From Pseudomonas phage HHBS12_2, in the sequence record PQ287652.1: DNA of 64,000 nucleotides. One strand, given 5' to 3'. The position numbers were made by a program, and so were the translations under genes. The first letter of the stretch is position 1. Every line of letters begins with the position of its first letter. The notes beneath the pieces are model-generated. The model searched no databases, had not been told where the DNA came from, and worked only from the letters and a program-made list of their open reading frames with translations. Below are positions 56,126 to 57,096 of this stretch, piece by piece.

Positions 56126-56150
56126 TGCACTGATGCAGATGGATTGGATT

Positions 56151-56180
56151 AGGCCGCCTTCGGGCGGTCTTTTCTTTGGT
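56151..56180 (+). terminator. rho-independent terminator after the VirE-like gene
   Basis: AGGCCGCC-TTCG-GGCGGTCT followed by TTTTCTTT. Confidence 0.7.
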
Positions 56181-56409
56181 ACGGAGAACATTAATTTAGC
56201 TTGTGAACGGGTGAGGCTTGAAAGCTATGTGGGAATTAAGGTGGCGTGGCGATGGCGTATTATGGGAAGTTAATAGATTTTCGGTATTGGTCTGGAGTGT
56301 ATGATGGTTGGATTTTGCGTGAAATGTTGAGAAATTGTGGGTTTGAGGTGGATTTTTGTGTGGAAATAGCCGCAAATTCCTGGATTGCTATTCTGACTGG
56401 GAAGATGGG

Positions 56410-56432
56410 AGGCCTACTGCCGCGTGGGTTTG
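56410..56432 (+). repeat. 22-bp hairpin motif, copy 3
   Basis: AGGCCTACTGCCGCGTGGGTTT, same orientation as copy 1. Confidence 0.5.
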
Positions 56433-56597
56433 CGGCCATTTTCCCGAATTCCCGGTTTTCCGAGCATGGGTTAAAACTATTCTACAGCGAAAATCGATTG
56501 CACAATCCTAATAGAAAAAATCTATCACGGACGTTACCTATCTTTAAAATTAATAAAATTAATGGGAATTTGGTAATTTGTTATGGTTTTAGGTTTG

Positions 56598-56619
56598 AAA
56601 GCCTCGCGGCACTAAGCCT
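56598..56619 (-). repeat. 22-bp hairpin motif, copy 4 (inverted)
   Basis: AAAGCCTCGCGGCACTAAGCCT preceded by GGGAATTTGGTAATTTG. About 80% identical over 60 bp to 10228-10287. Confidence 0.55.
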
Positions 56620-57096
56620 GTACACTACCAGTCAAGTTTCCGATTCCGCTCAACTCGCGGCAGGGTCGCCGGAAACTTCCGTCCTTCCAATCCATGGGCA
56701 GCGGCAACACCACGGCGGACTAAGCGGCAGGGCCCAAAACTCGACGAGCGGAACCGGAAATTTGGCCACAGGGCAGAATCGCTCACCTGGACATATTCCT
56801 AACATTCGATTTAACATTCAATCCAAACACTCACCGCCATCATCACCCGCCACCAGCCAATCCGATCCTCACCCACCAGCGTACCTCCCATATAACATCC
56901 TATAACACCACCTAACACTCATTCACCATCAAACCCACCCAGACCTACAGGCCGCCCACCAGCAGCCCATAGACGTGCTCCCTGGCCCCATAGTACAATC
57001 GCGCCATACTCAGTGTCGCGGCAAAGCACCAGGCCCCATCCGCCAACCAAGCCACCGCGACGGTCCAAGAATCGAACTCCAGGGACGCAGCAACAA

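Follow-up and report, generated by a model that had tools for sequence, protein, structure and literature searches.

The genome of Pseudomonas phage HHBS12_2 carries, between a VirE/VapE-like primase-helicase gene and terS, the gene of the small terminase subunit TerS, about 1 kb of DNA that stands out by its strand composition. This segment, called the spacer below, spans positions 56126 to 57096 of the 64,000-nucleotide stretch of record PQ287652.1 that was analysed here (the window). A first-pass annotation, made from the letters of the DNA, had proposed three roles for it: an origin of replication, a pac or cos packaging site, or a long G-poor noncoding RNA. Which of these does it serve, and what could have given it its skew? 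We consider it likely that the spacer is the pac-type packaging-initiation region of a headful Pbunavirus, laid out like cosN-cosB-Nu1 of phage lambda or pac of phage SPP1. Within this reading, we hold the position of the cut with more confidence than the motifs that TerS would contact.

GC skew was scanned in every 100-nt segment of the window (mean 0.00, standard deviation 0.136). The spacer contains both extremes of the 64 kb, +0.85 at 56264-56363 and −0.81 at 56841-56940, each about 6 standard deviations out; the next most extreme values, outside the spacer, are +0.48 and −0.45. The plus strand had been described as nearly C-free over 56221-56409 and as nearly G-free and CA-rich over 56800-56960, and base counts agree with both descriptions: A44 C15 G66 T64 for the former (C 7.9%, GC skew +0.63), and A51 C71 G11 T28 for the latter (G 6.8%, C+A 76%, GC skew −0.73). 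Two arms were delimited accordingly. The left arm (56190..56409) is G/T-rich on the plus strand, with about 8% C, and keeps its composition while not keeping its sequence. The right arm (56791..56965) is C/A-rich on the same strand, with about 7% G, and contains clusters of the word TAACAYYC and three copies of CCACCAGC. They are separated by a stretch of 27% GC (56500-56600) and by a GC-rich, hairpin-bearing module that shows no skew. The imperfect large-scale inverted symmetry seen by the first-pass annotation holds for composition and fails as a real inverted repeat. Inverted matches linking the two arms are short, non-collinear and composition-driven, so that a true large inverted repeat was rejected and the symmetry is compositional only.

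Where does virion DNA end relative to these arms? Around 300 Pseudomonas PB1-like phages (genus Pbunavirus) match the 5 kb around the spacer at 80-99% identity, the closest over the 1 kb of the spacer itself being phage cory (99.9%); the source phage of the window is, on these matches, a Pbunavirus. Two studies bear on the ends of such phages. Essoh et al. observed fixed Illumina read ends in virion DNA of Ab27-29, and Ipoutcha et al. (2024), who sequenced JG024 by nanopore, saw 36 out of 161 long reads begin at 59,376 +/−5, with a dip in coverage upstream of this position, and proposed a pac site. When both genomes were aligned, nucleotide 1 of Ab28 and position 59,376 of JG024 fell in one and the same alignment column, which is position 56495 of the window. 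At least 7 GenBank genomes start within +/−2 nt of it. The mapped cut precedes terS by 602 nt and falls on the left edge of a genus-invariant core (56476..56600) placed between the arms, and from there the genome of the mapped ends runs rightward into terS. This core combines the preferred virion-DNA end (about 56495 +/−5, AAAAT|CGATT), the 27%-GC stretch and a promoter named P040, described below. Other studies have reported headful, circularly permuted packaging for Pbunavirus, which fits a pac end found in only a fraction of particles. The word CGAAAA is found at the genome end, or at most 20 nt from it, in the window (56486-56492) as well as in phages MyoSmar (2577-2583) and WFC (2613-2619), and may be the remnant of a common cleavage-site sequence. 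The gene on the right of the spacer is well identified: terS (57097..57669, plus strand) matches PHROG 4783, and its product is about 97% identical to PDB 7UXE, the small terminase decamer of phage E217 (E=6e-120). With this match, the two end mappings at 56495 and the syntenic ends of relatives that carry direct terminal repeats (DTRs), the proposal of a pac or cos region just upstream of terS was strengthened.

Conservation changes sharply at the mapped end. In 13 non-redundant Pbunavirus sequences, the alignment columns of the left arm have a conservation of 0.70-0.82. The value climbs to 0.99-1.0 at about 20 nt before the cut is reached from the left, is 0.96-1.0 in the core, and remains at 0.9-1.0 rightward to terS, save at two indel spots. 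Pairwise divergence in the left arm reaches at least 0.20 with distant genus members, the level of third codon positions in terS and the primase gene. It is 0.01-0.07 in the core (0.05-0.07 with distant genus members) and 0.02-0.11 in the right arm (about 0.10 with distant members, around half of the synonymous-like rate); from the cut to terS as a whole, it amounts to a quarter to half of that rate. The left arm is drifting neutrally in sequence, and the DNA from the cut rightward is constrained. Core and right arm thus show, relative to neutral sites, the purifying selection expected of a pac region.

The constrained half is rich in repeats. Top-strand copies of GCGGCA are found at 56606, 56657, 56701, 56724 and 57018, that is five in 433 nt for 38 in the 64 kb (p=6e-6), and in 15 distant lineages 20 of the 67 top-strand copies are located at most 350 nt upstream of terS (p=3e-10). 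A single inverted copy is present left of the cut, and relatives likewise have bottom-strand GCGGCA left of the core (p=0.01). This inverted copy belongs to a 22-nt inverted repeat, I1 (56410..56431 and 56598..56619, 82% complementary, 166 nt apart), which brackets cut, core and promoter; its left copy bears TGCCGCG (CGCGGCA on the minus strand), and the match rises to 19 of 22 with the variants of the LBL3 clade. A second inverted repeat, I2, forms an extended hairpin (56631..56768, plus strand; arms 56633-56651 and 56746-56764, 89% complementary) that appears in minimum free energy (MFE) and centroid folds alike. Its pairs are compatible across 12 relatives, among which no compensatory changes were found. 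The repeated words reported earlier for the right arm were recovered there: CCACCAGC occurs at 56850, 56873 and 56956, and five of the 14 top-strand TAACAY copies of the 64 kb lie between 56800 and 56918. For the longer word TAACAYYC, the right arm has 4 of the 5 top-strand copies of the window. The repeats of this type form two clusters with helical spacing, at 56800, 56812 and 56825 and at 56893, 56903 and 56913, both of which are invariant in the genus. In three Pbunavirus relatives, the right arm carries at about 56834 a tandem duplication, some 37 nt long, of the CCGCCATCATCACCCGCCACCAGCCAATCCGATCCTCA unit; the non-coding indels at this place are multiples of 3 through a coincidence of unit length.

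The commonest 8-mers of the genome, CTCGCGGC/GCCGCGAG (35 copies), CGGCCGCG and GTCGCGGC, overlap GCGGCA and were considered as a packaging word used throughout the genome. Their copies are dispersed over the two strands, and they were rejected in this role; their abundance is probably compositional or codon-driven.

Put together, these data suggest the following scheme. TerS made from the adjoining gene would bind the conserved right half of the spacer, the GCGGCA repeats and TAACAYYC arrays being candidate contacts. The large subunit TerL would make the series-initiating cut at about 56495, on the left edge of the AT-rich core, if the published ends are projected by alignment, and packaging would proceed rightward through terS, to judge from the orientation of the mapped ends. 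The cos region of lambda (cosQ-cosN-cosB-Nu1) shows the same succession of cut site, small-terminase repeats and small-terminase gene, with packaging toward that gene and a second element across the cut. It differs from the present locus in several ways: here the end is, according to the literature, a headful pac end without cohesive ends, TerS is a decamer of an unrelated sequence family, terS is not beside terL, and the spacer is about 4 times longer, with flanks of extreme opposite strand composition. The pac site of SPP1 (pacL-pacC-pacR) is also a headful one, located at terS, and its cut has contact regions for the small terminase on either side; the cut serves only the first genome of a series (PMC9611059). 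SPP1 pac is shorter, about 270 bp, overlaps terS, and has no sequence relation to the spacer. Moreover, the left flank is not sequence-conserved here, which argues against a specific site of the pacL kind.

An AT-rich core surrounded by repeats is equally expected of a replication origin and of a pac site with a promoter. A lytic origin in the spacer, which would be compatible with a pac function, would use the core as unwinding element and the inverted repeats as initiator or primase sites, would be activated by P040, and would owe the skew of its arms to divergent strand-specific priming. Several features of the locus are in line with it. The 27%-GC core is bracketed by the 22-nt inverted repeat and the hairpins and has a promoter within it, the direct GCGGCA and TAACAYYC repeats could be iterons, and genes with RepB-primase (52981-54057, PF16793) and VapE (54395-56125, PF05272) domains lie directly upstream. 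The oriV of plasmid RSF1010, which depends on the RepB' primase, contains two priming sites that are inverted relative to each other. Global skew places the origin elsewhere. Cumulative GC skew reaches its global minimum within the DNA polymerase gene, at 40289, with a second minimum near 50 kb, whereas the spacer is a local maximum, and an origin defined by global skew was therefore rejected for it; a comparison of 40 genomes agrees with a skew minimum away from the spacer (PMC12390725). The polarity of the arms is also the reverse of the G excess that leading strands usually show, conservation begins at the mapped DNA end and is asymmetric about the core, and two origins would poorly explain the second switch in composition found in MyoSmar, 3.5 kb away at its other DTR boundary (see below). 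The origin, which had been put forward on account of the neighbouring initiation genes, therefore appears distinctly improbable.

We next considered transcription of terS, which in phage 14-1 has been mapped by ONT-cappable-seq (bioRxiv supplement of that study). Two sigma70-type promoters were reported there, P040, with a transcription start site (TSS) at 59399(+), and P041, with a TSS at 59807(+); their transcription units, TU045 and TU046 respectively, contain gp76, that is terS, as sole gene. No minus-strand TSS is listed in the 14-1 spacer. Projected onto the window, the TSS of the distal promoter P040 is at 56598 on the plus strand, with the promoter within the AT-rich core. The proximal promoter P041 occupies 56970..57006 on the same strand (TAGACG-N18-TACAAT, TSS projected to 57006). 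It was also recovered by an independent promoter scan and is near-identical across the genus, and at the equivalent place MyoSmar shows TTGACT-N17-TATAAT with the same CGCG behind it. From the projected 14-1 start sites, the core and 56970-56999 would act as sigma70-type promoters of monocistronic terS transcripts. As these promoters share DNA with the pac target, the supply of TerS would be physically coupled to that target.

The same data bear on whether the right arm acts as RNA. By homology with 14-1, it is inside the leader, about 500 nt long, of P040 transcripts, where it is predicted to be unpaired in both MFE and centroid folds, downstream of the long hairpin 56631-56768. It could then control terS as an unstructured leader, either as a rut site or as a landing pad for ribosomes or Hfq, the G/T-rich arm being unrelated. 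Such control is plausible in principle, since over-expression of TerS reduces the infectivity of E217 (PMC9611059), which makes tight control of terS conceivable. A rut tract is expected to be at least 80 nt long, with C in large excess over G, unstructured and in a transcribed leader, and the right arm has these properties, 161 nt of it containing 44% C and 7% G. Like the rut tracts of long bacterial 5′ leaders, it offers about 160 nt of unstructured, C-rich and G-poor sequence ahead of a dosage-sensitive gene. In contrast to them, no termination in the leader was detected, a promoter lies downstream of the tract, and a mirror-image arm is found on the untranscribed side. In 14-1, no termination site is listed between 53335 and 60583, and P040 reads extend to the end of terS, which argues against strong attenuation. 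The conserved P041, downstream of the C/A-rich arm, bypasses it altogether. The fold of the whole leader has an ordinary stability (z = −0.48), and with no compensatory changes in 12 relatives the leader as one structured RNA was rejected. Scans of the spacer against Rfam 15 brought up no family (best scores 15-22 bits for thresholds of 37-114, E at least 1, with E up to 10 scanned), and no tRNA or tmRNA was found in it. Of the proposal of a long G-poor RNA, what stands is a right arm that is part of the terS leader and predicted to be unpaired; the left arm and the switches at a DTR boundary remote from terS and in T7 are left unexplained by it. Control at the RNA level is therefore an unlikely cause of the polarity, while a rut-like leader might give the right arm, and this arm alone, an additional function.

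To look at the polarity outside Pbunavirus, we used TerS homologues with 39-54% identity, from Serratia, Escherichia, Xanthomonas and metagenomic phages. For 17 lineages, we took the contrast in keto skew with the AT-rich core as its centre and ranked it against the local background. The first-pass annotation had held that ordinary composition at this locus in related phages would speak against its proposal; instead, the order G/T-rich, AT-rich core, C/A-rich was kept upstream of terS in 13 of the 17 lineages, in the top 3% of background. A G/T-rich left arm was found at the equivalent place in MyoSmar, Bas100/WFC and metagenomic relatives. PhageTerm predicts one DTR boundary of MyoSmar 387 nt upstream of terS and downstream of the VirE primase gene; the core there has 26% GC, with a G/T-rich arm (+0.76) on one side and a C/A-rich arm on the other. 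For WFC and a second contig, the start of a terminal-repeat copy precedes terS by about 345 nt and falls within a core of 12-15% GC. Members of Myosmarvirus and Wifcevirus (MyoSmar, WFC and Mansfield) thus share with the HHBS12_2 locus a TerS that is 39-43% identical, the synteny primase-spacer-terS, and a genome end that falls 345-390 nt ahead of terS within an AT-rich core, with G/T-rich then C/A-rich flanks. They differ from it in having unit genomes with PhageTerm-predicted DTRs of about 3.6 kb, whereas Pbunaviruses appear headful and permuted and have a longer spacer with a stronger skew.

The other DTR boundary of MyoSmar (5980-6136) is 3.5 kb away and far from terS. The sequence is G/T-rich up to the boundary, with a GC skew of +0.87, and moderately C/A-rich 120-200 nt beyond it; the polarity is therefore not tied to terS. 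WFC and another contig also have a G/T-rich 3′-ending strand where their genomes end on the right. Phage T7 (NC_001604, 91-330 and the concatemer junction) gives a similar picture: its 160-bp terminal repeat ends in about 70 G/T-rich nt (keto skew +0.43), and a C/A-rich CCTAAAG array then follows the repeat (keto skew −0.47, GC skew −0.66). The T7 concatemer junction thus resembles the spacer in its G/T to C/A polarity and its short direct-repeat array, and differs from it in coming from an unrelated family with exact direct terminal repeats, in its arms of 60-150 nt instead of 160-220 nt, and in its weaker skew (keto +/−0.45). To our knowledge, the function of the T7 repeat arrays is not settled.

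What then could the arms be for? They make the 3′-ending strand G/T-rich on each side of the cut, which would be a property associated with DNA ends; this is the least certain step of the scheme. We favour such an end-associated cause over an RNA or origin signal, because the polarity recurs at terminase boundaries away from terS and because the composition of the left arm is kept while its sequence drifts. The cause could be selection, for 3′ tails used in recombination or protection or for strand-specific handling by the terminase, or else a footprint of single-strand exposure. In its boldest form, which we put forward tentatively and consider unlikely as it stands, the idea is that the arms are selected “phage telomeres”, a signal written in composition at boundaries processed by terminase, to which T7 would have converged. 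The 3′-ending strand would be G/T-rich over 100-250 nt each side of the cut, and after 5′ resection the tails would favour strand invasion, circularisation and recombination-dependent replication and would resist RecBCD. The G-strands of eukaryotic telomeres have the same G/T polarity as the arms, and GT-rich 3′ tails are the preferred substrate of RecA-family recombinases. Selection of this kind would account for a left-arm skew kept despite neutral drift of the sequence. Searching the literature for compositional asymmetry at pac sites brought up no relevant work.

The arms may on the other hand have no function and be the trace of mutation: each round of cutting at the fixed site, followed by 5′ resection, would expose the 3′-ending strand, on which deamination of cytosine and adenine would deplete C and A. 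The heavy strand of mitochondrial DNA shows such a depletion. The 3′-ending strands are indeed poor in C and A on both sides (left top strand, A23 C8 G35 T34%; right bottom strand, A17 C7 G44 T32%), the left arm evolves at the neutral rate and its skew is nonetheless kept across genera, and a like polarity is found at other terminase-made ends. A footprint fits less well with the purifying selection on the right arm and its invariant repeat arrays, with the left arm being internal in virion DNA of the DTR relatives, or with the absence of skew in the DNA nearest the cut. In addition, a headful series carries this end only in its first genome, and values of +/−0.8 are far above the skews known to be driven by replication or transcription. 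This origin of the arms is in our opinion doubtful.

Another form of end protection was suggested by CCACCAGC, which corresponds to the E. coli-type Chi sequence GCTGGTGG on the 3′-ending strand; RecBCD entering at the pac end would be turned from degradation to repair. The three copies of the right arm lie within 110 nt and are all oriented so as to be active for entry from the 56495 end, and each of the 13 copies in the window points to whichever pac-defined end is nearer. Pbunaviruses encode a Mu-Gam-like end-binding protein (PMC12407980), so that their ends appear to be under real RecBCD pressure. Most of the other evidence is unfavourable. The middle copy alone is conserved in the genus, the other two reading CCAACCGC and CCACAAGC; the Chi sequence reported for Pseudomonas, GCTGGCGC, is absent from the arms; the motifs are inconsistent in the arms of relatives, E. 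coli phages included; and the genome-wide count is just 1.4-2.5 times the Markov expectation. With two of the three octamers unconserved and GCTGGCGC not in the arms, the Chi explanation was mostly rejected, and we regard it as highly unlikely. As an observation on the word itself, GCTGGTGG occurs on the top strand at 24809, 26652, 27293, 28485, 53129 and 54793, and on the bottom strand at 13358, 14117, 19395, 23059, 56850, 56873 and 56956. When the circular map is opened at the pac end, the partition of strands by half is perfect, with a switch near the genome midpoint.

A number of observations weigh against the packaging-initiation reading or parts of it. The position of the cut in HHBS12_2 is a projection from relatives. 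Early work gave non-permuted genomes with different ends, phage Banzai was described without a significant PhageTerm peak, and a fixed read end could in principle reflect a site-specific nick. Words like GCGGCA are frequent in this GC-rich genome. The left arm is not conserved in sequence though TerS is 96-99% conserved, so that a sequence-specific contact of TerS with this arm is unlikely. Comparison of 56565-56597 in the window with 59366-59398 in 14-1 showed that the −10 element of P040 is altered, from GGTATACTTTAGTAT in 14-1 to GTTATGGTTTTAGGT in the clade of cory, Epa6 and S12-1; P040 may therefore be weak or inactive in the clade of HHBS12_2, whose P041 is identical to that of 14-1. Finally, the polarity switch is missing in 3 of the 17 lineages and weak in one. 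The left end of lambda has the opposite polarity, and the rule is not universal.

The spacer had also been described as having no credible open reading frame (ORF). Strictly, there is one: a mechanical ORF of 219 amino acids at 56246-56905 on the plus strand (193 amino acids from the ATG at 56324) matches PHROG 18478, and it has been deposited as a gene, or as a “hypothetical protein”, in JG024, phiDCL-PA6, S12-1 and Epa13. Gene annotations at this place conflict among Pbunavirus records. In an alignment of 19 Pbunavirus sequences, the frame was not kept, 8 of the 19 having stops or a frameshift. Substitutions showed no excess at third codon positions (72/75/85 for the three positions, compared to 10/4/60 for terS and 5/0/42 for the primase gene). 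With flat codon-position substitutions and broken frames, a coding role was rejected, so that the description fails as to the presence of a frame and holds as to its coding capacity. The ORF and PHROG 18478 are probably a propagated mis-annotation, and a recurrent false “gene” can be removed from Pbunavirus annotation.

Part of this picture was already in print: the pac position and the promoters of the terS spacer have been published, separately and tentatively. As far as our literature search shows, four points are new, namely that the two end mappings meet on one invariant block, that the recurrently annotated ORF of the spacer is not a gene, that candidate recognition repeats are conserved across genera, and that a strand-compositional switch is present family-wide at terminase boundaries. 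Of the Pseudomonas phages used for therapy or engineering, Pbunaviruses are among the most common, and their genome ends have been inconsistently reported. A concrete pac site would serve the design of genome rebooting, the assessment of generalised-transduction risk, and structural work on TerS-DNA complexes, the structure of E217 TerS having been obtained without a known DNA target. With the signature G/T, AT-core, C/A, the packaging sites of relatives that have not been characterised could be located with no data beyond their sequence. Should the polarity prove functional, it would amount to an unrecognised strand-composition requirement at terminase-made ends.

The neighbourhood of the spacer is closed on both sides by terminators. 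An intrinsic terminator at 56151..56180 (plus strand) closes the VirE/VapE primase-helicase gene directly upstream. Already pointed out by the first-pass annotation, it was recovered by a terminator scan as 56151-56170 followed by a T-run, with a stem of 8 pairs (6 GC); it is likewise annotated in Epa6, LBL3 and DP1, and its conservation is 0.96. On the other side, TerL starts at 62618 (PF04466), about 5 kb from terS, so that terS stands alone. A hairpin terminator at 57790..57824, with a 16-pair stem, closes this monocistronic terS unit and faces convergent minus-strand genes; it is annotated as bidirectional in Epa6, LBL3 and DP1.

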